Below are positions 13,390-32,026 of a stretch of 32,490 nucleotides of DNA, piece by piece (position 1 is the first letter of the stretch; each line of letters opens with the position of its first letter). Made by a program: the position numbers and the translations under genes. This DNA is from Desulfurococcales archaeon ex4484_217_1 (GTDB taxonomy: Archaea; Thermoproteota; Thermoprotei_A; EX4484-217-1): assembly GCA_002254745.1 (NCBI GenBank), contig NJED01000001.1, positions 1 through 32,490 of the forward strand, in the 5' to 3' direction. The notes under the pieces are model-generated. The model worked only from the letters and a program-made list of their open reading frames with translations. It made no database searches and was not told the DNA's origin.

Positions 13390-15191
<1,802 letters not shown>

Positions 15192-15199
<8 letters not shown>

Positions 15200-18262: not shown

Positions 18263-19396
18263 ATGAACAGACAAAGTTCTAGGAAAAGCGTGAAAGTACA
18301 CATAGACTTTACTAAATACCCTTTTTTAATTCAACCTACACAATATTTTAACATAAAGTATAATGTGAAGCTAGGTTTTATAGAGATCTTAAAAACCATG
18401 GACATTGAAAAGTTAAAGAGAAGAGTAAGAGAGAGAATTTTAGGTGCAATAAAAGGAAAAATACCTGATCCCTTCGGAGTATCTGATGATGAAGAAATTG
18501 CAGCATACTATTTAAGCATAATTGTACTATCCATTATCAATGATAAATGGCTTATCAGAAGGTATGCAGTAGCTGAAGCTGAAAGAATAAGGAAGTACTT
18601 GGTAAGCGAAAGTAATGATGTTTTGTCCGTAATAGCAAACACATTAGGAATATTGCTAGATAATATAGAGCAGAGACCTTTGAGAATTCCTTACTTTATC
18701 AGTAAGGGAATAATATATGATGTAAAATATGTATTTAGAGTTCACGTTAAAGATTATCTTAAGTCCATAAGGCTTCATAGCGACCTTTCTTGGAAACTAG
18801 TTAATCAAATAGTTTCAGAAGGATTTGTTTACTTAACCAGGGAGAAGGTTATTAGGTATTTGGTTGAAATCATAACTAATATTATAGAACGTCAAGTTAA
18901 GCCCTTAACTAAGGAAGAAGTACCTAGCTTAATTAAGGAAATCTTAAGTGACGTAGAAGTAGAAGTGCAGAAAATTAGGAAAGAGCACGCACAATATGCA
19001 CTCTATGCTAGTATGAGAGAGAAATTTGATGAACTCCGAAGTTTAGGAATTATAGTTTTTGAAGCTTTTCCCCCATGCATCAAAGCCCTATATCAAGATG
19101 CATTAGATGGTAAACATCTTTCACACCATGCTAGATTTGCTTTAGCCACTTTTCTCCTCAACATAGGATTAGATGTAAACTCTGTTGTTAACGTTTTTAG
19201 GAAACTGCCAGATTTTGATGAAACTATTGCCAAATACCAGGTTGAACACCTTGCAGGCTTAAGAGGTTCTAGGAAAAAATATAAACCCTACAATTGCGAT
19301 ACTATGAGAACACTTGGTCTATGTATCGAAGAATGTAATGTAAAGAACCCTTTAGTAAAGTATTATAGGAATGTGCTGAAAATTAAGCGAGCTTAA
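18263..19396 (+). CDS. priL: DNA primase large subunit PriL
   Basis: 377-aa ORF. FPPCIKAL, HHARFALATFLLNIG and the C-terminal Cys set (YNCDTMRTLGLCIEEC) match the Fe-S domain of the archaeo-eukaryotic primase large subunit. Confidence 0.85.
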   Translation: MNRQSSRKSVKVHIDFTKYPFLIQPTQYFNIKYNVKLGFIEILKTMDIEKLKRRVRERILGAIKGKIPDPFGVSDDEEIAAYYLSIIVLSIINDKWLIRRYAVAEAERIRKYLVSESNDVLSVIANTLGILLDNIEQRPLRIPYFISKGIIYDVKYVFRVHVKDYLKSIRLHSDLSWKLVNQIVSEGFVYLTREKVIRYLVEIITNIIERQVKPLTKEEVPSLIKEILSDVEVEVQKIRKEHAQYALYASMREKFDELRSLGIIVFEAFPPCIKALYQDALDGKHLSHHARFALATFLLNIGLDVNSVVNVFRKLPDFDETIAKYQVEHLAGLRGSRKKYKPYNCDTMRTLGLCIEECNVKNPLVKYYRNVLKIKRA

Positions 19397-19913
19397 AAAC
19401 TATTCTTTCGCAACCTGACATCCTATCGCCCTTTCTAACCCAAATGAAGAGTTTATTGTTGCTTACAAGGTCATAGTCTCCATCAACGTAAACTTCAAGT
19501 ATTTTGGTTCGTTCCGGGAAGAACCAATATACTTCATAGTCGTACTCTGCTACGGTCTTATCATAGTAGTCCTCAAAGATGTTAATGCCCCTCTTTAATG
19601 CTCCTTTAAACTTTATGAAATATACTATGTAAGGTAGATCAACGTACCCTATAAAGTCAATATTTATAAACTTAACGTCTAAGTTTACTTGCTGACCGTT
19701 TATGAGAACTTTCTCTTCTCTCAAGATTTCCTTAATAACAGAATATAGCCTGTTAATTTCATTATAATATTCACGGGGTTTATGGAGAAGCTTGTAAAAA
19801 TACTCTTCTGGGTCAAGATATTGATATTTCAATATTTGATTGAAAATACCGTTCCGTTCAACTATAAAGTAGGACTCGGCATGTATGGGTATAATACTAC
19901 TTAAATTGTTCAA
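19383..19913 (-). CDS. hypothetical protein (TTG start)
   Basis: 176-aa stop-free ORF in an AT-rich context, rich in Tyr, Phe and Asp. The only canonical start is TTG 19913, and there is no internal Met until about 12 residues from the C-terminus. Its 3' end overlaps priL by 14 nt. Confidence 0.5.
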   Translation of the reverse strand: MNNLSSIIPIHAESYFIVERNGIFNQILKYQYLDPEEYFYKLLHKPREYYNEINRLYSVIKEILREEKVLINGQQVNLDVKFINIDFIGYVDLPYIVYFIKFKGALKRGINIFEDYYDKTVAEYDYEVYWFFPERTKILEVYVDGDYDLVSNNKLFIWVRKGDRMSGCERIVFKLA

Positions 19914-20048: not shown

Positions 20049-21932
20049 TTACCTATTTTCCACCTTAGTTATTATGTTTCGTGTCTCCATGTTTTCCGGT
20101 ATTATTTTTACCCATATTGGTCTAGGATCTCCTGTAATTCTGATTAATGCTTCTCCTGTTTTTAACCATGTCATTCTCTCTTTCTCTTCCTCATTAAGTT
20201 TCATGTACTTAGCTACAGCTTCTATATAGTCTTTGCTGTTAGAGCCAAATACTATGATTGTACCAGCATTATCAAGTACGTCTTTCGGGAAATCAGTAAT
20301 ATCCTGTGATGCAAGGGCTACGGCTAAGCCGTATCCTCTACCTTCTTTTACTAAGCTTCTAACTATTTTCGAACTTGACTTAGTGTCAGTTAATCTCCAA
20401 GCTTCATCTATGAGAACTAAGTGCCTAAGCTTATTTGTTGGCGTCAATGTTAGCATGTAATTGGTAAGTATTTGCAAAATTGCTAATGCATATACTTTTC
20501 TATATTCTTCAGGTAGCTTGTATAGGGCAAAAATTACAGGTTTCTTCACTATGGAGAATACGTTGTTGTAGTTACTACCTAAAAATACTTTACTATTTAA
20601 TTGTTCTATTTTCGTAAGTAGTGTGTAAAATTTTAGCTCAAGTTCAGGATTTGAAGATTTTTCTTCTTTAATTATACTTATTAGAGTTTCCAAGTTGGGA
20701 TGTTGAGTGCGTTCATACGATTTAAGTATCGACATGTAGAGTATATATTCTTCAGCAGGTTCTAAGTCTGTTAATGCCTTAATAAGGTCTACTAATTGTT
20801 TAGCTCTAAGTCTTGGACTTGTAAACCATGGCAACATTAAATTAACTGGTGTTTTCTCAGGGTCTACTATTGAAACGCCTATAGTTTTACTTAGCCCAAT
20901 AAATTCTCCTCTCAAATCCAGAACCCATATAGGTACATCGTATTGCCCAATAACCCTCTTAGCTATTGTGTATAGTAATGTTGTTTTACCTCTACCTGTA
21001 GGTCCAACAATAACCATGTGCTTAGTTAAGTATTTTTCGAAGTCGTAAAATACTAGCGTTCCATAGTCTATATCTTCACCTATAAATATTCCCCCACCTG
21101 AAATCTTTGGTCTTTTAACATACCCTATGGGTGTTAGGAAACCCAAGTTGGATTCGAGCACGGTTATAGGTTTACTTTCACCTAGAAGACCATGTGTTAT
21201 AGCTTCTAATACTTCCTCTTCAGATGCTCTCTTCAACTCTAGTCCTAAACTCGCTTTAAAAGTCGATGATAATGTTTCACCTTTCCTTTTTAGCTTCTCG
21301 TAGAGTCTTCTAACATTTTTGTCTTGCGCTGTGGCTACTAAATACATTTTCACATTGACTGGCGTTTCTCCTCTACTTATTCTATTAAATAATGTTTCAA
21401 GTTTCTGCAGTTTTCTCTGGACATAGGGGTTAGCAGGATCCGCAGAAAGCAACACTTTATAGTTAGTTATGGTGCGCTCAAGATTTCTAATGTACTTCCT
21501 CACATCTCCGCTCTTTTTAATTAAAAGTAGAGAGGTATTATCTTCAGATGCAACTATAAAGTTAGTGAAAGCTCTTATTTGCTGCAGTAAGAAGCTTTGG
21601 GATACATCGGCAAACGTATATGGTATTTCGCTTACCGCATATACTACTGCTCCTTTGTATACATCTTTGCTGGGTATAATCGCTATGTTCTCTTCAACAT
21701 GAAAATCGTTTATGTCTTTAATATTCCTTCCTCTAAATCTAATGCTTAGCAGTCTCCCAAATTTCCCTTTACCTATCATCATTAAAGATGCGGCAATAAT
21801 TGTTGGGAGCACCAGTAAGACTAGGTAATATGGATATTCGAGAAAGCGAATACCAGAAATGTATATGAAAACAGTTAGGCCTACTGTTATAAGCACATAT
21901 GGTATTACTTTATTACTTTCCACTAATCTCAC
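20049..21932 (-). CDS. membrane-anchored VirB4/HerA-type ATPase (CedB-like / conjugative TrbE-like)
   Basis: 627-aa ORF with two N-terminal hydrophobic helices. Walker A VIVGPTGRGKTTLL, VLDLRGEF strand, Walker B LVLIDEAWRL, then ALASQD. GTG start overlaps the preceding small ORF by 20 nt. Confidence 0.7.
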   Translation of the reverse strand: MRLVESNKVIPYVLITVGLTVFIYISGIRFLEYPYYLVLLVLPTIIAASLMMIGKGKFGRLLSIRFRGRNIKDINDFHVEENIAIIPSKDVYKGAVVYAVSEIPYTFADVSQSFLLQQIRAFTNFIVASEDNTSLLLIKKSGDVRKYIRNLERTITNYKVLLSADPANPYVQRKLQKLETLFNRISRGETPVNVKMYLVATAQDKNVRRLYEKLKRKGETLSSTFKASLGLELKRASEEEVLEAITHGLLGESKPITVLESNLGFLTPIGYVKRPKISGGGIFIGEDIDYGTLVFYDFEKYLTKHMVIVGPTGRGKTTLLYTIAKRVIGQYDVPIWVLDLRGEFIGLSKTIGVSIVDPEKTPVNLMLPWFTSPRLRAKQLVDLIKALTDLEPAEEYILYMSILKSYERTQHPNLETLISIIKEEKSSNPELELKFYTLLTKIEQLNSKVFLGSNYNNVFSIVKKPVIFALYKLPEEYRKVYALAILQILTNYMLTLTPTNKLRHLVLIDEAWRLTDTKSSSKIVRSLVKEGRGYGLAVALASQDITDFPKDVLDNAGTIIVFGSNSKDYIEAVAKYMKLNEEEKERMTWLKTGEALIRITGDPRPIWVKIIPENMETRNIITKVENR

Positions 21933-22104
21933 CTCTTACTATGTTCCTGTAATAAGTTAAGATAGCTAATACGGGGAAAAATATTAGAATAGAGAGCAGT
22001 ATTGATAAGGATAAGTCTATTTGGTTTAAATGCGTGAGCACACTGTATACTACAAATATTATGGTAAGGATATACATTATTATCATAGTTTTAAAGGGTT
22101 CCAT
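21913..22104 (-). CDS. small two-helix membrane protein (CedA2-like position)
   Basis: 63-aa ORF with two hydrophobic helices. It is tightly packed between the 487-aa membrane protein gene and the ATPase gene. Confidence 0.5.
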   Translation of the reverse strand: MEPFKTMIIMYILTIIFVVYSVLTHLNQIDLSLSILLSILIFFPVLAILTYYRNIVRGEISGK

Positions 22105-22114
22105 AATATCACGC

Positions 22115-23578
22115 TCAAGTTTTTATAGGTAACCGCACTCTTCTACCACCAATAACGTATGCTAAAGAATAAGTTGACATTATGAGAATAGAAAGATAGG
22201 TTATTGGCAGCATTATCCATTCGAAAATAGCACTAGCTATGGTTCTACCTAAATCCTCTAAATTATTTATGTTTCCTGATAGAGATTCTAAGTAGCCCCT
22301 ACTGCTTATTTTTGGTTTCTTTATCTGCTGCTTAGGGTTAATGAATATTTTTATCTCATACAAGCCTTCCTCTATAGTGACGTTGTAAATGTAGAAGTTA
22401 ATTTGGCCCCACTTCCTCACCTCAGTAGGACTTTCTAACTGCACATTGTTAACCTTGATTTTGCTAACATTGTAGTCTTCATGTACAATTGTAGTCAATA
22501 TTGATGATTTACTTGCATTAAGCTTCAACGCTACCTCGTTCTCATTTTTACTAATTTTTAACAAGCTTATGGCTCCAGTATCGCTTAACTTAATGATGAA
22601 ATATTCATCTACGATAATAGTGTCTTTCATTCTCAGCTCGATAAAGTAGTCGGCGTTAGGGTCTTTGAAAGGATCATATATGAAGTCCCTTTGCGGATCT
22701 ATTATTTCTAATTCTGGAGATAGTTTTGTACCACAATAAACCACCTTTAGTTTTAACGGTATACTATATGGAAGGCCTCCACGCGGTCTACCGGCATCAA
22801 ACCAACCATTATCCAAGGTAATATATGATGCTGCAAAGACTTCTTCCCCCCCATGTCTCGCATACCATTTTGTAAGCGCTCCAACTATTGGATGTCCTTT
22901 TATATCAAGTATTTGTCCTTTAACAAAAGCTATTCCCCATTTTTCAATATTTATGCTGCCTATTCTCTCAATAACTTCACTGATGTTTTCCTCAGCACTT
23001 TCAACAACAAAGGCTTCAGCAAACGCAGGCAGTAACGGTAAGGCAAGAGAGAAAATTATCGACATGGCAATTAAAGATGCTCCCGCACCTCTTGTTACTC
23101 TGAAAGGTACGGAATATAGTAACACACCTATAACAAGTATTTTTGCGAAGAATTGTTGGAAAATGAGGCCTAGTATGAAGAGAAGCTCAAGAACAATTAG
23201 CGTATATGTTGCTAAACTTATTATAGGGCCAAGACCTGCCGTAGATAGTGCTTTCATGCCTGCACTAGACAGCATCGTAGAGAAGGTCATAAGAGTAGAA
23301 ATGAACGAACCCAAGATGGCAATTCTACCTGTAATCCATTCAAAATATAGTTGCCAATCTACATTCAATATAGAGCCAAGATAGTTCACCACTTCGATTA
23401 TGGAGGAAAACATAAAGATAAGAATAGATGCAGCAAGAGCGTCATAAATAAGCGTGGGAGCCCATTTCTTAATACCCCACCATGGTATAGGTAGAGCGTA
23501 AATAAGTACACCTAAGTAGTATGTAAGTATTGCCAACGAGTACGCTAGTATAAGAAACTGATCCATGATACTTCCCAT
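22115..23578 (-). CDS. polytopic membrane protein with large non-membrane domain (CedA/VirB6-like position)
   Basis: 487-aa ORF with about six N-terminal hydrophobic helices (residues ~10-200). A ~240-residue hydrophilic, beta-rich-looking region follows, then C-terminal hydrophobic helices. It starts 10 nt after the 81-aa ORF. Confidence 0.55.
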   Translation of the reverse strand: MGSIMDQFLILAYSLAILTYYLGVLIYALPIPWWGIKKWAPTLIYDALAASILIFMFSSIIEVVNYLGSILNVDWQLYFEWITGRIAILGSFISTLMTFSTMLSSAGMKALSTAGLGPIISLATYTLIVLELLFILGLIFQQFFAKILVIGVLLYSVPFRVTRGAGASLIAMSIIFSLALPLLPAFAEAFVVESAEENISEVIERIGSINIEKWGIAFVKGQILDIKGHPIVGALTKWYARHGGEEVFAASYITLDNGWFDAGRPRGGLPYSIPLKLKVVYCGTKLSPELEIIDPQRDFIYDPFKDPNADYFIELRMKDTIIVDEYFIIKLSDTGAISLLKISKNENEVALKLNASKSSILTTIVHEDYNVSKIKVNNVQLESPTEVRKWGQINFYIYNVTIEEGLYEIKIFINPKQQIKKPKISSRGYLESLSGNINNLEDLGRTIASAIFEWIMLPITYLSILIMSTYSLAYVIGGRRVRLPIKT

Positions 23579-23588
23579 GCTCGACTTT

Positions 23589-23834
23589 CTAAAATGCTGA
23601 AGCCAAGTATTTGATAAGTGCGAAAATACTAGTACCTATGGCTAGCCAAAAAGCTCCCATTATTGCGTCTTCAACCATGTCCTGGCCGAATCTTTTAACT
23701 CTATATATTGGGATAGGTGAGCCCTTCAATAACCAGCCTATAGCCCATGATAGCATGAATAAAGCCCAAGCTGCCGTAATGACTCTTGTAGTTAAATCGC
23801 TAATTATACTGTCTATACTCACTCTCTCACCCAT
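23589..23834 (-). CDS. small two-helix membrane protein (candidate CedA1/VirB2-like pilin)
   Basis: 81-aa ORF, the first gene of the operon. It has two hydrophobic helices (ITAAWALFMLSWAIGWLL and AIMGAFWLAIGTSIFALI) joined by a basic loop, KGSPIPIYRVKRFGQD. Confidence 0.5.
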   Translation of the reverse strand: MGERVSIDSIISDLTTRVITAAWALFMLSWAIGWLLKGSPIPIYRVKRFGQDMVEDAIMGAFWLAIGTSIFALIKYLASAF

Positions 23835-23953
23835 AAAAATATAGGGGGTTTTAAAAGAAACCTTGCGGGAACCTTAAAAACTACTGAAGAAACACTATAC
23901 CAAAAATACTTTTATATTATATACTACGGTATTACTTTTAGGTGATATTCTAA

Positions 23954-24166
23954 TTGTCGACCATATGGCTTGACGATACTGTTGTTGTAACTTTTAAGCT
24001 AAGGAGGGAAATCCTTGAAGAACTCGATGAACTTGTCAGGAAAGGCTACTTCTCAAGCAGAAGCGAAGCAATAAGGAAAGCTATAATAGAGCTATTAAAT
24101 CATTATAGTGAGGAAAGAAAAGGTACTGTAAAGAAAGCTCAATTGAAAGCTACTGCCTTAAGGTAA
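23954..24166 (+). CDS. ribbon-helix-helix (CopG/NikR-N type) DNA-binding protein
   Basis: 70-aa ORF. VVVTFKLRREILEELDELVRKGYFSSRSEAIRKAIIELL is a textbook RHH beta-alpha-alpha pattern. TTG start; divergent from the membrane/ATPase operon. Confidence 0.7.
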   Translation: MSTIWLDDTVVVTFKLRREILEELDELVRKGYFSSRSEAIRKAIIELLNHYSEERKGTVKKAQLKATALR

Positions 24167-24380
24167 TCAGTTTTCCTCGAAGTCCAACTCTTATACTTGA
24201 CAAAGTAGGTTTTCTAAGTTTCGAATTACATTTAGGGCAAACACCACCATACCAGTTCATTATCTCACTAGGTGTTGGCAGTCCATAGTAATCTTGCCCT
24301 ACTCTCTCAAACCGGTATAATATAAAGCCACAGTTTCTGCAAAGATAAATAACAGGCATAGATATCACCTTAGTGTACAA
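24150..24380 (-). CDS. small zinc-ribbon protein
   Basis: The CRNCG ... CPKCN pair forms a four-Cys ribbon. The probable start is the internal Met of MPVIYLCRNCG. Its 3' end overlaps the RHH gene by 17 nt. Confidence 0.5.
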   Translation of the reverse strand: MYTKVISMPVIYLCRNCGFILYRFERVGQDYYGLPTPSEIMNWYGGVCPKCNSKLRKPTLSSIRVGLRGKLITLRQ

Positions 24381-25332: not shown

Positions 25333-27306
25333 GTGGTATTCAAAAAATATTGGCCCCTAACATCAAGAACATATTGGTGCCCTACGTGTAATGTCCCCCT
25401 TTTAAGTAGCCGATGTTATAAATGTGGTGGTGAGGGTTACGAGATAAAACTCAGAGAACCCGGAGATGTTAGAATAGCATTTGAACATGACATAAGTCAG
25501 ATTCTAAGCTCATTGAACATCAGAGAAAAATTAAAGACCAAGTTCTTCTATGAGAAAATAATCTTGCTTAATAAAACAACACACATAGATGACGCTAAGG
25601 AGGTAATAATTGACGGTAATATTTTCGGCATAATGTTATATAACCCATTTGAGAACAGATGGGAATTTAGGCCATCATATTATGGTGCTTTAAAACTAAT
25701 TGAGGAGAACAGCATTGAAACAGTAATTGTCCGCGGGAAAGTGAAACCAACACAAATAATAGCCTCGCCCACTCTCTCGGAAAAACGATATGTAGTACTA
25801 CTAAATGCCAGAGAAGAACCTATAGGGCTAGCTAAGGTAGTGTCTTATGGTAAAATGAAGGTAGTTAAAGTATATAGGCGGAAGTTCTACTTTGAAACAA
25901 GCGCAAGAAAAGCAACCATAGAGGATGTAATTAAGGCAAACGAGGAACGTCTAAATAGTATGGTGCAGGAGGCTACAAAGTTTCTTGAAAAAATACGCGC
26001 TAAGATTTCTAAAAGAATCTTGGTATCGTTTTCTGGGGGTAAGGACAGTTTAGTCTCACTACATTTAACTTTACAAAGTTTGGGGGATTGTCCACTTCTA
26101 TTTAACAACACGGGTATTGAACTCCCCGAAACCATAAGAACAGTGCATGAAGTAGCAGACCGTTATGGCTTAGACTTAGAAGTAGCTGATGCAGGAAACG
26201 CTTTTTGGGAGTCCGTAGGTTTCTATGGGCCGCCAGCAAGAGACTACAGATGGTGCTGTAAGGTAGCGAAATTAGTACCACTAGCCAGGAAAATGCTTAA
26301 AGACTATCCTAACGGAATACTCAACATAGTGGGTCAAAGAGCATACGAGTCTCTCGATAGGGCAAGAAGCCCAAGGATATGGAGGAATAAATGGATACCG
26401 ACAATAGTAAGTATATCTCCAATTCAGTATTGGAACCAATTAGCTATTTGGCTATATATCTTTAAGAATAAGCTCCAAGTAAATCCGCTATACTCCATGG
26501 GATTTGACAGAATAGGTTGCTACATGTGCCCAGCAAGTAGACTAGCAGAGTTTGAAGTAGTAAAGAAAACCCATCCCGCATTATGGGATAAATGGGAGTC
26601 TTTCCTATACAAGTGGGCAAAAAGAATTAATGCTCCAAAGGAGTGGGTAACTCTAGGTTTGTGGAGATGGCTTGGGCCAGCAACTCCTAAAAAACTCTTG
26701 GCCAGAAAACATAGGGAATTTATTGAGAAATGGCGTGAGCAATATAGAGCATGGCTTGACATGTACGTAGTTAAAACCAATATTGATAATGAAGAAGCCA
26801 GCATACTGTTTTCTAAGAGCATTGATTTGACCAAAGTGGAAAAGGCCTGTAGCATACTAGGAAATAATGTGGTAAGGAAAGAAGAAGTGTTAGTAGTAAA
26901 AAATGATAGTAGAGATGCGAAATTTACCTTCAACAAGAGAGGACTGTTGATAGTTAAAGCAAAGAATAATATAGTTGAGGAAACATTGGACGCCGTTAAG
27001 CTCACTTATAGAAGCATGTTCTGTACGAAATGTCTATCCTGTGTTACACTATGCCCCACTGGATCAATAAGTATATCTAAAGACTATGAAGTTATAGTTA
27101 ACTCCACAACATGTATTATGTGTAGGATATGTTTAGATATATGTCCAATAGCTGATGTCATGGTTGAGAAAATAGTAAATGCGTTAATCCTAAATAGGTA
27201 TGATGCGTGGAGAAGAGAAACTAGGAGGAAAAGAGAAGAAGTAGCTAAGTTTTTAGAAAAGCTATTAAGGGTAAGGTTAGCAGCTAAATGTCCCAATATT
27301 TCCTAG
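25333..27306 (+). CDS. PAPS-reductase-like PP-loop ATP pyrophosphatase with N-terminal Zn-ribbon/PUA-like region and C-terminal 2x[4Fe-4S] ferredoxin domain
   Basis: 657-aa ORF. Zn ribbon CPTCN...CYKCG; PUA-like stretch ending VVLLNAREEPIGLAKV; PP-loop SFSGGKDS; C-terminal CTKCLSCVTLCP and CIMCRICLDICP. GTG start immediately follows the acyltransferase stop. Confidence 0.8.
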   Translation: MVFKKYWPLTSRTYWCPTCNVPLLSSRCYKCGGEGYEIKLREPGDVRIAFEHDISQILSSLNIREKLKTKFFYEKIILLNKTTHIDDAKEVIIDGNIFGIMLYNPFENRWEFRPSYYGALKLIEENSIETVIVRGKVKPTQIIASPTLSEKRYVVLLNAREEPIGLAKVVSYGKMKVVKVYRRKFYFETSARKATIEDVIKANEERLNSMVQEATKFLEKIRAKISKRILVSFSGGKDSLVSLHLTLQSLGDCPLLFNNTGIELPETIRTVHEVADRYGLDLEVADAGNAFWESVGFYGPPARDYRWCCKVAKLVPLARKMLKDYPNGILNIVGQRAYESLDRARSPRIWRNKWIPTIVSISPIQYWNQLAIWLYIFKNKLQVNPLYSMGFDRIGCYMCPASRLAEFEVVKKTHPALWDKWESFLYKWAKRINAPKEWVTLGLWRWLGPATPKKLLARKHREFIEKWREQYRAWLDMYVVKTNIDNEEASILFSKSIDLTKVEKACSILGNNVVRKEEVLVVKNDSRDAKFTFNKRGLLIVKAKNNIVEETLDAVKLTYRSMFCTKCLSCVTLCPTGSISISKDYEVIVNSTTCIMCRICLDICPIADVMVEKIVNALILNRYDAWRRETRRKREEVAKFLEKLLRVRLAAKCPNIS

Positions 27307-30142
27307 TCCTTATAAAATCCATTTCAGCCTTAAGTAATGCTTTGTAAAAGTTTTCTTCACCATAAACTATCTCACCTAAAACCCTAGCAGCAGTTTTTGG
27401 ACCTACACCATACGTTGAAAGAGCTATTACTGCGTATTTTCCAAATCTTAGAACAAGGTCAGCTTTAAGTATCTCATCTTTCAAAACATTTTTCTCAAAA
27501 GAACTCAGTTTCAAGCCTCTCGCTCTTTTCCTAATAATATTCTCTGCTTCAACATCATTGGGTGAAAGCACGGTCAAGAACCCGGCTCCGCATTTTCTAC
27601 ATTGCAATCTTTCAGGAAGATCCCTTACTCTAACATTGTTAAACACGTAGCCGCACTTAACACATACTAGTTTAACTTTCTTGTTAAGTAATCTTTCTTT
27701 AAATGCCTTAACGATGGAGGGTATTTCGTGGGAGGCTTCAATAAACGTTATTTGAGCACTTAAAATTTTAGCTGTTAATGGCATTGGATCTTTTTCCTTA
27801 TAAACTAAGAGCTTTATTTTGCCATCTCTTAAATCTCTTAGCACCTTTAGTACGGAATCTAAATCAGTTCTAAACGTGATTATTTCATTAAGAGCTTCTA
27901 ACCCTATTAACGTATTCTCGTATGTTGGTAGAATTCTCAATACGGCACTATAAGAGACGCCAGGTTTTAAAGCGCCAAACCGCTTAGCCACATTGAATAA
28001 ATGCCATTTAAAAAGTTTAGTTCTTTTAAGTTCATCTGCTAGCATCGTTCTAAGCACGTGTTTAGTGGTGGAGCAAAGACTCTCCAGTATTTTAACTATG
28101 AAGTCAGCTTTTATGAATTTACTTGAAATGATAAATACTCTATAGGGATCGTTTTTGAGAATAAAGTTTAAACCTGTACTCCTCAGCATGTGGGAAATGA
28201 GAGTAGATAATGTGAACGTCCCTCTACTACCTAGATGTATGTGAATTATAGCTATTTTTCCCAGAGACTCTACAACTACGTGTCTATCTGAGGGAATAAA
28301 GCCTACTTTACTCTTTTGGTAACGTATTTTCTCTAATATAATGTTCTTTGCTTCTTCACTTAGGGGGTACATGTCTAAAGCGGAGAAATCGTTGTTAAAC
28401 ACTCTTCTCTTGAAGGCACCAACTTCTCTGGCAACTTTGAAATCAACCGGTATTAGTTCTCCTTCCCACCACGGTAAAATACCTAAGTCTTTAATAGTAG
28501 GTTTTACATAAACACATTCTTCGCCAATACCAATAACCTCCCATACCATACCCGATAAAACGAACTTAGAACCTACATCGCAGTTAGCAATTACAAATTT
28601 TTCATCAAGCATTCCAATAACTTTGCCTGTTACAATATCTTTAACTGCATATTGCCTCACATCAGGTATCATAGTGACTTCATAGTAGTATTTCCAGGAT
28701 TTAGCGGTTCTCCCTAGGAGCTCTCCACGGTACCTTATAACTCCTATTTCATTAAGAAATTTAATGAGCTCTTTAAATGTTTCATAGTCAAAATCTCTAT
28801 ATGGGTAAGCCTTGCTGATTATAGAGAAGGCCTTGTTTATATCTAAAACCTTATACTCTAGAGCTAAGCCTACAATTTGATGTGCTAAAACATCTAAAGA
28901 CCCAGCTGGCATAATAGGTTTTTCTAAAATACCGTTCAATGCTCTCCTAGCAATTACAGCGGATTCTAGAATATCATCAAGGTTATCTGTAGTGATTATT
29001 ATACCCTTAGAAGTTTCAAACTCTTTATGTCTGCTCCTACCTATTCTATGAATAAGCTTAGTAGCCTGTCTAGGAGAACCATATTGTATAACGAGATCCA
29101 CGAAACCTATATCAATTCCCAGTTCAAGCGATGATGTTGCAACTATAGTTTTCACAGACTTTTTCCTCAACATCTCTTCGGCTTTTAACCTTACTTCCCG
29201 AGATAAGCTTCCATGATGAACCAGGACATTGACGCCAAATATCTTTTTAAGGTTTAAACCTACAATTTCAGCAAGATCCCTAGTATTGGTGAAAACTATG
29301 GTTAAACCCGTTTTCCCTATAAATTCCTTTATCTTCCTAAGTCTTGCAGCGAATTCAGGTCGGATCAGATAAGCGTTCATTAAATAATCATCGTCTAATA
29401 TGGGTTTAGAATAGTCTACAATTATTGACATAGGCTTCTTTACATCTTCGATAGCAACTTTAACCTTCCTAAAACCTCCAAGGAATCTTCTGGCTAAATC
29501 AACATCTCCTATAGTGGCTGAAAGTCCTATTCTCTGAATTCTCTGATTAGATAGCACAGAAAGCCTCTCTAGCGCCACAGCGAGCGAAATCCCTCTCTTA
29601 CTACATATAAGCTCATGAAGCTCATCTATTACAACCCATTTAACGTTTCTAAGAAGCTCTCTTAAACGTGGGCCAACTAAGAGGAATTGAAAAGTTTCCG
29701 GAGTGGTTATGATGATATGTGGAGGATTTCTAACTATCTTTCTTCGCTCATTTTTCGGCGTGTCTCCGTGCCTTACTGAAACTTTTATATTTAAAGCTCT
29801 ACCTACTTTCCCCATTCTCCTCATAATATCTCTGTTTAGGGCTCGTAATGGTGTAATGTATATACAATAAACATTACTCATTTTCTCAAGACCTAAGTCT
29901 AGTATTTTAGAATATATTGGAAATAGCGAGGCTTCTGTTTTTCCAGATCCAGTAGCGCTAACTACTAATGTATGGTAGCCTTTAAGAATTAAAGGAATAG
30001 CCTTTCTTTGAATCCTAGTTGGTTCTACGTATCCGAACTTCTTAATTACGTTAATGAGTTTTCTGTTTAAACCTAAGTCTTCAAACTTTATGGTGCTCAT
30101 TGTGACCAAATTATTTACAACACTTTTGCCTCTATACTTCAA
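27284..30142 (-). CDS. lhr: Lhr-type large SF2 helicase (DEAD/DEAH box)
   Basis: 952-aa ORF. Motif I VSATGSGKTEA, Ia ITPLRALN, II DELH, III SATIG, VI HRIGRSRH. The long C-terminal extension carries a Zn ribbon (CVKCG...CRKCG). The likely true start is ATG 30100 (MSTIKFEDLGL); the ORF-track start at 30142 is TTG. Confidence 0.85.
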   Translation of the reverse strand: MKYRGKSVVNNLVTMSTIKFEDLGLNRKLINVIKKFGYVEPTRIQRKAIPLILKGYHTLVVSATGSGKTEASLFPIYSKILDLGLEKMSNVYCIYITPLRALNRDIMRRMGKVGRALNIKVSVRHGDTPKNERRKIVRNPPHIIITTPETFQFLLVGPRLRELLRNVKWVVIDELHELICSKRGISLAVALERLSVLSNQRIQRIGLSATIGDVDLARRFLGGFRKVKVAIEDVKKPMSIIVDYSKPILDDDYLMNAYLIRPEFAARLRKIKEFIGKTGLTIVFTNTRDLAEIVGLNLKKIFGVNVLVHHGSLSREVRLKAEEMLRKKSVKTIVATSSLELGIDIGFVDLVIQYGSPRQATKLIHRIGRSRHKEFETSKGIIITTDNLDDILESAVIARRALNGILEKPIMPAGSLDVLAHQIVGLALEYKVLDINKAFSIISKAYPYRDFDYETFKELIKFLNEIGVIRYRGELLGRTAKSWKYYYEVTMIPDVRQYAVKDIVTGKVIGMLDEKFVIANCDVGSKFVLSGMVWEVIGIGEECVYVKPTIKDLGILPWWEGELIPVDFKVAREVGAFKRRVFNNDFSALDMYPLSEEAKNIILEKIRYQKSKVGFIPSDRHVVVESLGKIAIIHIHLGSRGTFTLSTLISHMLRSTGLNFILKNDPYRVFIISSKFIKADFIVKILESLCSTTKHVLRTMLADELKRTKLFKWHLFNVAKRFGALKPGVSYSAVLRILPTYENTLIGLEALNEIITFRTDLDSVLKVLRDLRDGKIKLLVYKEKDPMPLTAKILSAQITFIEASHEIPSIVKAFKERLLNKKVKLVCVKCGYVFNNVRVRDLPERLQCRKCGAGFLTVLSPNDVEAENIIRKRARGLKLSSFEKNVLKDEILKADLVLRFGKYAVIALSTYGVGPKTAARVLGEIVYGEENFYKALLKAEMDFIRTRKYWDI

Positions 30143-30190: not shown

Positions 30191-32026
30191 GTGGGAAAGT
30201 ACGCCATGGACTTAGGGTTGAAATGTATCTTACTTACCGTAGTTCAGCTGGCTATAATACTCTACTTACTATCCGGTGTTTATGCAGCTTTTATAGCGAA
30301 CATATACATAGTGTGGGCTTTTATCTCTTTATCCTTAATAATTGCTTCCATACTTCTCGAGTCCCCAATAGCAGCATTAGTAGAAACATTTTCAGCCGTA
30401 CTATCTTTGCTTATTATAAAGAAATTACTAAACGTATGTTTAACGTTTATTCATGAGTATAGGTTAGCTGTAATAACGATAAATATAGATAATATAATCG
30501 GCAATCCAATAACCTACGCCATAGTGTTTTCAGCTTTTATAGCATCATATTATTCATGGAGCTTAATTCTTAAAAGAGGAGACGTAGTAGTTGATAGGTT
30601 AAAAAATATAGGAATGTCTTTAAGAAGCATTCAGAAAAACCTATTAGCTAAGTCTTCAGTTGTAATGTTAATTGCCTTTCTTATAACGTTAATTAAGCCT
30701 ATGGAGATATATGAGGAAGTAATGTACATTCTCGGAGTTGTTTTTTCTCTACTATTGCTTGTATTAAAAGGGTATAGAGCAAGTAAAAATTTATGTGCTG
30801 TAGCCTCATGGATTATCCTTCCCTATGCTATGTTTAAAGGTGTTGCACTTGAAAGCACCGTGGAAGAAGAAAAGGTAATAGAAGGTGTCAAAATAGGTAA
30901 AATAGTTTCTAGACTAGTGTATGGTAAACCTGCTAACGTGTGGTTGAAAGAGAAACTTCACTTACCCAAATCTCCAAGTTGGTATTGGAAAGTTGAATCA
31001 GGGACATATACTTACAACCCCTATTCTCAAATAAACTACCATATTTTAATAGCTGGAAGCAGTGGGACTGGAAAGTCGAGCCTAGCTAAAAAACTAATAA
31101 AAGAACTTTATTACCAATGGGCAATACCTTGCTTAGTTATAGATCCACACAATGAATATGTTAGAGTTATTGAGGAACTTGACGGCATAGTCGTAGATGC
31201 TTCCAAAATATCTATAAACCCCTTAGAACTTGATGAATGTTCTCCAAGAGAAAGAATAGTTCAAGTAGCTGATACTATACAACGCGTGTTTAGACTAGGT
31301 AACCTCCAAAGAGCCGTTCTCGAAGATCTCCTAGAAGAAGCTTACGCTGAGAAGGGAATAATAAACGATGATCCTGAAACATGGAAGCTAAAGCCACCAA
31401 CATTTCTGACATTGCTTAAGGTTATAGAGAAGAGAATAGAGTACGCTAGAAGCAGTGGTGAGAGATCAAGATATGAGGGGTTAAAGCCATACATTAGACT
31501 GTTATCAACATCGATATTTAGAGAGACCACGATAAGCTTTTCAGACATTCTTAGTAAACCTAGTGTAGTAGCTATGGCTAATTTGCCTGGTGACCATGTG
31601 AAAGCTATTTTATCAGAAACCCTTCTAAGAAAAATAGCCCATTACATGTATGTTTCAGGAGAAAGCATGGGATTGTCGCATTACATAGTTATTGATGAAG
31701 CTCATAGAATATGTAGAAGAAGCACAGAACCTTCTCTGGTAGCGAGACTAATGATGGAAAGTAGGAAGTACGGTATAGGTTTCATAATAATAACACAACA
31801 ACCATTAGACATAGATGAAGGCATTATAGCAAATAGTGCTTTAAAAATATCCTTTAAACTTTCTGAACCGGAAAACTTGGACTATATGGCTAAGACCTTA
31901 GCAGGGTATATTTCGGAAAATAGGCTGGAAATTTTTAAGGAAGCACTTTATTATATGCCTAGATTCTATGCTATAGTAAGAGATAGTAGACTAGCAGAAC
32001 CCGCCATAGTGAAAATAGAAATCTAA
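30191..32026 (+). CDS. polytopic-membrane-anchored HerA/VirB4/FtsK-superfamily ATPase
   Basis: 611-aa ORF with about six to seven hydrophobic helices in the first ~220 residues. Walker A ILIAGSSGTGKSSLA, VIDPHNEY strand, Walker B YIVIDEAHRI, then IIITQQP. GTG start (alternative ATG 30206). Confidence 0.7.
   Translation: MGKYAMDLGLKCILLTVVQLAIILYLLSGVYAAFIANIYIVWAFISLSLIIASILLESPIAALVETFSAVLSLLIIKKLLNVCLTFIHEYRLAVITINIDNIIGNPITYAIVFSAFIASYYSWSLILKRGDVVVDRLKNIGMSLRSIQKNLLAKSSVVMLIAFLITLIKPMEIYEEVMYILGVVFSLLLLVLKGYRASKNLCAVASWIILPYAMFKGVALESTVEEEKVIEGVKIGKIVSRLVYGKPANVWLKEKLHLPKSPSWYWKVESGTYTYNPYSQINYHILIAGSSGTGKSSLAKKLIKELYYQWAIPCLVIDPHNEYVRVIEELDGIVVDASKISINPLELDECSPRERIVQVADTIQRVFRLGNLQRAVLEDLLEEAYAEKGIINDDPETWKLKPPTFLTLLKVIEKRIEYARSSGERSRYEGLKPYIRLLSTSIFRETTISFSDILSKPSVVAMANLPGDHVKAILSETLLRKIAHYMYVSGESMGLSHYIVIDEAHRICRRSTEPSLVARLMMESRKYGIGFIIITQQPLDIDEGIIANSALKISFKLSEPENLDYMAKTLAGYISENRLEIFKEALYYMPRFYAIVRDSRLAEPAIVKIEI

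Follow-up and report, generated by a model that had tools for sequence, protein, structure and literature searches.

The stretch of DNA analyzed here, called the window below, covers positions 1-32,490 (32,490 nucleotides, nt) of contig NJED01000001.1 from Desulfurococcales archaeon ex4484_217_1 (GCA_002254745.1), read 5'->3' on the forward strand. A preliminary description of its sequence had proposed that four minus-strand genes between positions 23834 and 20049 have the architecture of the Ced (crenarchaeal exchange of DNA) system. The listing of open reading frames (ORFs) contains these four genes, which encode proteins of 81, 487, 63, and 627 amino acids (aa) and are spaced by 10 nt, 10 nt, and a 20-nt overlap between the last two. 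Coordinates, sizes, and spacing (gaps of at most 10 nt, or overlap) were all as described. Hydropathy analysis also reproduced the described membrane layout, with two transmembrane (TM) segments in the 81-aa protein, two in the 63-aa protein, and two at the N-terminus of the 627-aa ATPase. The 487-aa protein is polytopic, with a hydrophobic core at residues 1 to ~200, a hydrophilic stretch at ~205-440, and a last TM segment at ~447-473.

In a comparison with the orthologous loci L001 and L002, the ratio of nonsynonymous to synonymous substitution rates (dN/dS) was 0.07 for cedA1, 0.10 for cedA, 0.15-0.21 for the 63-aa ORF, and 0.08 for cedB (gene names as in Table 1). All four ORFs are therefore real genes under purifying selection. 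Their tight spacing suggests that cedA1-cedA-cedA2-like-cedB may be transcribed as a single operon from a putative promoter just 5' of cedA1. Within the clade, orthologous intergenic sequences keep two promoter-like boxes upstream of cedA1 (Table 1) and also the leader of the divergent ribbon-helix-helix (RHH) gene. A bacterial promoter and terminator scan of the window, a method not applicable to archaea, gave no enrichment. The likelier start of cedB is the GTG at 21923, which has a GGTGA Shine-Dalgarno-like motif 5 nt before it and yields a 624-aa product, the length of the public gene call, with an 11-nt overlap with the 63-aa ORF. Translation of cedA1 may begin at the GTG at 23822, which follows GGTGAG and yields 77 aa, the length of many homologues.

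Starting from a CedA1 alignment, we retrieved 75 homologous loci. Most of them (in Desulfurococcales, Acidilobales, and Pyrodictiaceae) have the order cedA1-cedA-(small ORF)-cedB. Together with the matches to the CedA1, CedA, and CedB models described below, this recurrence supports the proposed Ced-like order. Sulfolobaceae-type loci have no adjacent cedB, in line with publications.

Table 1. Features of the ced locus and its surroundings in the window
Feature	Coordinates	Strand	Basis or remark
cedA1, VirB2-like two-helix pilin, 81 aa (possibly 77)	23589..23834	-	CedA1 profile and PDB 8DFU match
cedA, polytopic membrane channel protein, 487 aa, CedA1-like N-terminal hairpin	22115..23578	-	CedA profile and APE_0220 homology
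All-beta ectodomain of CedA, residues ~216-425, last extracytoplasmic loop	22304..22933	-	AlphaFold2 (AF2) model, alignment
cedA2-like two-TM protein, 63 aa	21913..22104	-	Position, topology, conservation
cedB, membrane-anchored VirB4/HerA-superfamily ATPase, 627 aa (longest ORF)	20049..21932	-	CedB profile
TATA-like TTTTAAAA box, -22 to -15 of cedA1	23849..23856	-	Read from sequence; putative promoter element
T-rich box TTTTTAA, ~-46 to -40 of cedA1	~23874-23880	-	Read from sequence; putative promoter element
Lhr helicase, 952 aa, C-terminal CxxC...CxxC	27284..30142	-	Pfam DEAD, Helicase_C, WH_Lhr, DEAD_assoc
Second membrane ATPase, 611 aa, divergent from Lhr	30191..32026	+	~6 TM in residues 1-220, DUF87/HerA-type ATPase
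RHH regulator, divergent from cedA1	23954..24166	+	Weak aCcr1/CdrS-like matches, below cutoff
Zinc-ribbon ORF, 76 aa, CxxC...CxxC	24150..24380	-	Overlaps 3' end of RHH gene
PAPS-reductase-domain protein, between Lhr and ced	25333..27306	+	C-terminal 4Fe-4S clusters; PRK13795 family 'hypothetical proteins'
Soluble 176-aa ORF, 135 nt downstream of cedB	19383..19913	-	Overlaps 3' end of convergent PriL
Second aIF-2B-family gene, 169 aa	region 14334..15199	-	Only N-terminal half of Pfam model

Relationship of the four proteins to Ced components

Three of the four proteins are homologous to Ced components. The 81-aa protein scored 119.9 bits (E 3.5e-35) on the NCBIfam CedA1 model NF041797, above the curated cutoff of 100. 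It could also be aligned, along 73 residues, to the pilin in the solved pilus structure of Aeropyrum pernix (PDB 8DFU; E 5.7e-23), and its overall identity to this pilin is 49%. Judged by these sequence matches, it is the CedA1 pilin, as had been claimed. The structure of the A. pernix CedA1 pilus has been reported together with arguments for homology to type IV secretion systems (T4SSs) (PMC9905601), and an identity of 49% is enough for modelling the window pilin on this structure, the only one solved for a CedA1 pilus. Its identity to CedA1 of the Sulfolobaceae loci is 58-64%. A local Pfam scan gave no model matching any of the three membrane proteins, PF27251 'CedA1' being found in precomputed annotations only, and word-indexed homologue searches with CedB and CedA1 returned close relatives only and no named Sulfolobales proteins.

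The 487-aa protein matched the NCBIfam CedA model NF041796 (158 bits, E 2.8e-46) in two stretches split by an insert, with residues 7-201 aligned to positions 6-202 of the 259 in the model. A. pernix APE_0220 (452 aa), whose gene lies immediately downstream of that for the structurally characterized pilin, is homologous to it over 98% coverage, and all its database relatives are 450-505 aa long. The N-terminus of the protein also matches the CedA1 model, and that of the CedA family profile matches the 8DFU pilin (E 9.5e-8), as expected from the published homology of the CedA N-terminus to CedA1 (PMC9905601). By profile and near full-length homology the 487-aa protein is CedA, which upholds the earlier assignment.

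The 63-aa protein is 73% identical to its counterpart in L001, 57% in L002, 36% in L005, and 19% in L007, and close relatives share a C-terminal YYRNIVRG motif. A small two-TM ORF likewise lies directly after cedA in the Sulfolobaceae (49-59 aa) and Pyrodictiaceae loci, and the literature places CedA2 at this position in Sulfolobaceae. No curated family model in Pfam or NCBIfam matches the protein. The earlier claim that all four Ced components are present thus stood for CedA1, CedA, and CedB by homology, and for CedA2 in position and topology but not in sequence similarity.

The 627-aa ATPase contains a Walker A motif, GPTGRGKT (residues 310-317), and a Walker B motif, LVLIDEAW, and has Pfam matches to AAA_10, DUF87, and HerA_C. 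The NCBIfam CedB model NF041017 aligned over nearly its full length (260 bits, E 3.9e-77; residues 35-610 on model positions 19-586 of 590), whereas the competing models scored far lower: CedD 78 bits, VirB4 at most 36, and HerA 21-40 (HerA cutoffs 800-970). By these profile scores, the ATPase is CedB and groups with CedB and not with HerA-NurA helicases, in agreement with the preliminary description. Alternatively, it might be a HerA-type repair helicase or part of an anti-phage HerA module that merely adjoins unrelated membrane proteins. The DUF87 and HerA_C matches would fit this, as would PADLOC matches to HerA and mad8 (54-99 bits) and the best PDB sequence matches, which are anti-phage HerA proteins. 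However, besides the profile scores, the two N-terminal TM helices argue for CedB, as does the place of cedB, overlapping or directly beside the ced membrane genes, which is retained across orders. No NurA, Sir2, or DUF4297 partner was found in the window by Pfam, NCBIfam, and PADLOC scans, and scans for defence-system and viral families with PADLOC and PHROGs gave generic ATPase-domain matches only. An AlphaFold model of CedB was of low confidence (predicted local distance difference test, pLDDT, 53), so its Foldseek ranking is weak support; there the top eight matches were VirB4 proteins (R388 TrwK and T. pseudethanolicus VirB4; E 3e-8 to 1e-6, TM-scores of at most 0.45), among them 8rtd and 4ag5/6 at E ~3e-8, all ahead of the HerA hexamers. 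We regard a HerA module as extremely improbable and treat the ATPase as CedB below.

The beta domain of CedA

The preliminary description had noticed a hydrophilic domain of ~240 residues in the 487-aa protein that it could match to nothing. The domain is indeed present, but it did not stay without a place: it is an all-beta module that is normal in CedA outside Sulfolobaceae. An AF2 model of CedA from 16 family members (mean pLDDT 84) has helices up to residue 207, only beta strands at 219-415, and a long final helix at 437-476. Foldseek matches of the beta domain were weak (E 6e-4 to 1e-2, low TM-scores) and were sandwich-type folds throughout, including the Gram-positive pilins BcpA and SpaA, the SlaA/SlaB S-layer proteins of Sulfolobus acidocaldarius, transthyretin, and an SSV19 tail protein. 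The fold thus resembles, at this weak level, transthyretin-like, CnaB, and Ig-type sandwiches. In carboxypeptidase M, the carboxypeptidase-regulatory-like domain was also matched marginally by the CedA family profile.

The short CedA of Sulfolobaceae aligns to window residues 1 to ~225 plus ~445-487, which puts the beta module exactly in the loop that precedes the final TM helix. Among the 75 loci, CedA is 259-268 aa long solely in five Sulfolobaceae-type loci; in all other loci where it could be called, it is 447-531 aa long (618 aa in one ORF). The long form occurs in Pyrodictiaceae, Hyperthermus, Acidilobaceae, Caldisphaera, Ignisphaera, Aeropyrum, and two metagenome-assembled genomes (MAGs) labelled Sulfolobales. 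The beta ectodomain is found in every surveyed non-Sulfolobaceae CedA and is missing in the Sulfolobaceae-type loci only. It is therefore a family-wide ectodomain and not a peculiarity of the window locus, and the CedA of the Sulfolobaceae model organisms is the exception. The CedA proteins of the two Sulfolobales-labelled MAGs bear the ectodomain and are 447 aa (L061, Sulfolobales archaeon SKW299) and 456 aa long (L039, uncultured, with cedB adjacent). These two long forms suggest either that Sulfolobaceae acquired the short CedA as a derived state or that the MAGs are misassigned.

Two features make it probable that the beta module is extracellular: almost every member has a C-terminal CedA tail with a net charge of +3/+4, and the module carries N-x-S/T sequons at 3.8 times the density of the membrane part. 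It also diverges quickly. A membrane-core identity of 78% goes with 48% in the ectodomain, and one of 31% with 13%; in the comparison with L001 and L002, dN/dS was 0.16 for the ectodomain and 0.03 for the TM core, i.e., evolution was about five times faster. The pilin is far more conserved than the ectodomain of the channel protein, being 80-96% identical in relatives whose CedA is 41-80% identical. The ectodomain is not mentioned in three Ced papers compared here (PMC9905601, PMC11823120, PMC11868833); the original Ced/Ups papers of 2015/2016 lie outside this comparison, and we do not claim priority.

Genomic neighborhood and linked genes

The other genes of the window are largely housekeeping genes: biotin ligase, dCTP deaminase, AdoMet decarboxylase, an Lrp/AsnC regulator, TYW3, PhoH, Trm5/TYW2, PfkB, aIF-2B-like proteins, MTAP, Hsp20, the primase subunit PriL, a PAPS-reductase-like protein, and Lhr. 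Since Ced is evolutionarily derived from conjugation machinery (PMC9905601), the locus might be the remnant of an integrated conjugative plasmid or other mobile element with a T4SS-like export apparatus. CedB does resemble DUF87/VirB4-like plasmid proteins remotely, at 22-26% identity and in the ATPase domain only, and Sulfolobus plasmids encode some of these proteins. However, CedA had no match among 72,556 plasmids, and the GC content of the window is even (33-40%). A Pfam scan of window ORFs of at least 90 aa found no integrase, relaxase, or replication gene, and tRNA and Rfam scans of the window gave no match. Moreover, the same neighbors (PriL, Hsp20, aIF-2B, and Lhr) flank ced in uncultured Desulfurococcales/Thermoproteota whose CedA is 80%, 63%, and 41% identical to that of the window. 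The integrated-plasmid explanation, which on this evidence is very improbable, was therefore rejected. The chromosomal, non-mobile setting proposed before is supported by the same synteny and scans.

The helicase gene lhr is linked to ced well beyond the window. The C-terminal CxxC...CxxC of its product is a feature described for aLhr1 (PMC8301817). In ~17 loci of Pyrodictiaceae, Hyperthermus, Ignisphaera, and other Desulfurococcales, lhr lies directly upstream of cedA1 on the same strand (L017-L021, L023, L024, L029, L031, L032, L036, L037, L046, L048, L063, L064, and L082). In the window clade it lies 3.4 kb upstream, with four genes in between, which encode the PAPS-reductase-like protein, a hexapeptide transferase, the 76-aa zinc-ribbon protein, and the RHH regulator. 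This linkage resembles that of the aLhr2 gene of S. acidocaldarius, Saci_1500, which reportedly lies downstream of the ups operon. A survey paper on Lhr, which annotated neighbors with TIGR profiles only, found no neighbor conserved across all archaeal genomes for aLhr1 or aLhr2 and did not mention ced. Neither the three Ced papers (the 2015/2016 Ced/Ups papers being outside the comparison as above) nor the Lhr papers compared here mention the ced-Lhr linkage. From gene linkage, we infer that Lhr is a candidate accessory factor of Ced.

The second membrane ATPase adjoins Lhr/ced in the window clade and, with the same architecture, in 13 loci of other, mostly Pyrodictiaceae-type, lineages. CedD is a recently described second import ATPase (PMC11823120, PMC11868833), and the CedD model is the best NCBIfam match of the window protein, with 65.8 bits against a cutoff of 600 in the ATPase domain only, the N-terminal polytopic domain being unmatched. 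An exhaustive search gave 184 cluster representatives of homologues at E<=1e-30. In 71 members of the family that were scanned, CedD matched 40 at E<=1e-20, CedB 2, and HerA 1. The ATPase domain of the window protein was matched as strongly or more by DndH/DptH. Because the CedD match is below the cutoff and limited to one domain and DndH/DptH match as well or better, we call the protein only CedD-like and, at most, a putative CedD orthologue. Its gene linkage points to a possible participation in Ced. In the Pyrodictiaceae locus L020 (1325-3141, minus strand), two ORFs with a 25-nt overlap take the place of the gene, one for the membrane part (275 aa) and one for the ATPase (337 aa), which could reflect a frameshift or a genuine two-gene version.

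Several smaller observations were made around the cluster. The 119 intergenic nt between the RHH gene and cedA1 show high conservation across the clade, and a candidate for local regulation of the ced operon is the RHH protein. The RHH gene and the overlapping zinc-ribbon ORF are conserved next to ced in the window clade only. Two GTTTCTT copies upstream of cedA1, tried as a Sulfolobales damage element, were dropped as unconserved beyond the nearest relatives. A homologue of the PAPS-reductase-domain protein adjoins cedA1 in two distant loci (L044 and L059). The 176-aa ORF downstream of cedB is conserved in the window clade only (58-82% identity, low dN) and had no match in Pfam, NCBIfam, PADLOC, PHROGs, or PDB. 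For the short aIF-2B gene, a frameshift, a pseudogene, and an assembly error are all conceivable. The ~355 nt before PfkB lack any ORF of 90 aa or more, and at this position a gene of 333 aa is found in the syntenic locus L005.

A probable chromosomal Ced locus compared with known systems

Considering these results, the locus is most probably a chromosomal, Aeropyrum-type Ced system whose host is an uncultured relative of Desulfurococcales. The Ced machinery itself is already known, and what is new here is a further member from an uncultured lineage. A. pernix Ced (APE_0220a CedA1, APE_0220 CedA, and a DUF87 ATPase) has the same order cedA1-cedA-ATPase on one strand in a chromosomal housekeeping context, and its CedA, likewise long, shares the beta ectodomain and the C-terminal TM helix. 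However, in A. pernix the ATPase gene follows cedA without a small two-TM ORF in between, its ATPase ORF is shorter (461 aa) and ~31-33% identical to that of the window over the ATPase motifs, and its flanking genes differ (ribosomal protein genes, with no Lhr or second ATPase within 10 kb). In S. acidocaldarius, CedA1, CedA, and CedA2 are Saci_0569, Saci_0568, and Saci_0567, CedB is Saci_0748, and CedD is Saci_0667. Sulfolobales Ced shares with the window the order cedA1-cedA-small two-TM ORF, and the membrane core of CedA aligns throughout. The Sulfolobaceae proteins differ in that CedA (259-268 aa) lacks the ~220-residue ectodomain, cedB is at a distant locus rather than adjacent, and the small ORFs have no detectable similarity to the 63-aa protein.

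The resemblance extends to the VirB2/VirB6/VirB4 proteins of bacterial T4SSs, which share a two-helix lipid-binding pilin, a channel with a pilin-like N-terminus, and a putatively VirB4-like motor (PMC9905601). Unlike them, the window Ced is chromosomal and non-mobile, has no relaxase, VirB3/5/7-11, or VirD4 at the locus, and presumably works in the direction of import. The Ted system of Thermoproteales (TedC/TedA/TedB/TedD) is also a domesticated set of pilin, channel, and ATPase, and its linkage to HerA, Rad50, and ParA parallels that of ced to Lhr; however, Ted components have no recognizable sequence similarity to Ced and the TedC signal peptide is cleaved (PMC9905601), whereas the window proteins clearly belong to the Ced family.

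Several results weigh against the assignment. The scores of CedA and CedB are below the equivalog cutoffs of their models (330 for NF041796 and 700 for NF041017), marking both as divergent members. This probably reflects divergence from Sulfolobales-type sequences that presumably underlie the models, and both proteins were kept as members because they align with the models from one end to the other, with much lower scores for the strongest rival families. The alignment behind the CedB structure model was too shallow for its fold ranking to be more than weak evidence. The Foldseek comparison of the 487-aa protein with VirB6, proposed earlier as a check, did not yield the expected similarity, since a search of PDB with the full CedA model gave beta-domain matches only and no VirB6/TrwI. 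The published basis of the CedA-VirB6 link is HHpred and Cealign (PMC9905601), and a VirB6-like fold of CedA rests on this literature. A profile of five Sulfolobaceae CedA2-position ORFs scored -3.5 bits on the 63-aa protein; because the profile fails to detect it, the name CedA2-like is limited to position and topology and is a putative one. Sulfolobales have an ANTTTC-type damage-response element (PMC6061795), and no conserved DNA-damage element was found upstream of cedA1, where ANTTTC-like GTTTC motifs are not kept beyond the closest relatives. Finally, tests of the direction of DNA transfer and of inducibility are, to our knowledge, confined to Sulfolobales. Even so, nothing that the preliminary description had named as speaking against a Ced system was found in the profile searches, the match to the pilus structure, or the CedB versus HerA scores.

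By analogy with work on S. acidocaldarius, Saccharolobus islandicus, and A. pernix, we infer that the locus may serve in pilus formation, DNA import, and repair. CedA1 subunits would leave the membrane and polymerize with lipids into a VirB2-like, conjugative-type pilus. CedA, with its N-terminal hairpin homologous to the pilin, would form a membrane platform or channel at the pilus base, and its beta ectodomain would project outwards, perhaps spanning the pseudoperiplasm and S-layer or touching the partner cell. The small two-helix protein may be a minor pilin-like or assembly subunit. A ring of CedB ATPases, each anchored by its two N-terminal helices, would drive pilus assembly and draw DNA into the cell, and the imported DNA would then serve recombinational repair. 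The genes cedA1, cedA2, cedB, and cedD are required for DNA import (PMC11823120, PMC11868833).

Another possibility is that the CedA1 pilus serves mainly in adhesion or biofilm formation, in DNA export, or in bidirectional exchange, with the CedA ectodomain as an adhesin. A. pernix CedA1 pili were isolated from ordinary cultures, with UV treatment unmentioned (PMC9905601), and CedA1 and CedE contribute to export in Sa. islandicus as well (PMC11868833). The lack of a conserved damage-response motif upstream of cedA1 and the adhesin-type pilins and S-layer proteins among the weak fold matches of the ectodomain would also agree with such a role. However, every genetic test so far has assigned CedA, CedB, and CedD to import, and DNA processing, more than adhesion, would account for the linkage to the Lhr repair helicase seen across lineages. 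We therefore consider a main role in adhesion or export unlikely and retain DNA import by a Ced system as the probable function.

The locus adds a complete, well-resolved single-operon Ced from an uncultured lineage, and the comparative survey is more useful than the window locus itself. According to the literature, Sulfolobales depend on Ups pili for cell contact, and Ced pili have never been seen there. The fast-evolving ectodomain could be a surface-exposed module for partner recognition or for spanning the S-layer, which in Ups-less lineages would replace the role of Ups in contact and specificity. In several families, ced is accompanied by genes for an Lhr helicase and a CedD-like membrane ATPase; an aLhr1-type helicase and a polytopic HerA/DptH-like ATPase could be unrecognized core components that receive and unwind the incoming DNA. 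Taken jointly, namely that outside Sulfolobaceae the Ced machine is larger than the textbook four proteins, with the ectodomain as a recognition module and Lhr and the second ATPase as core parts, these ideas are rather doubtful and are offered tentatively. They nevertheless provide testable candidates for two questions of Ced biology, namely how Ups-less cells may make specific contact and how DNA may be handled on the cytoplasmic side.

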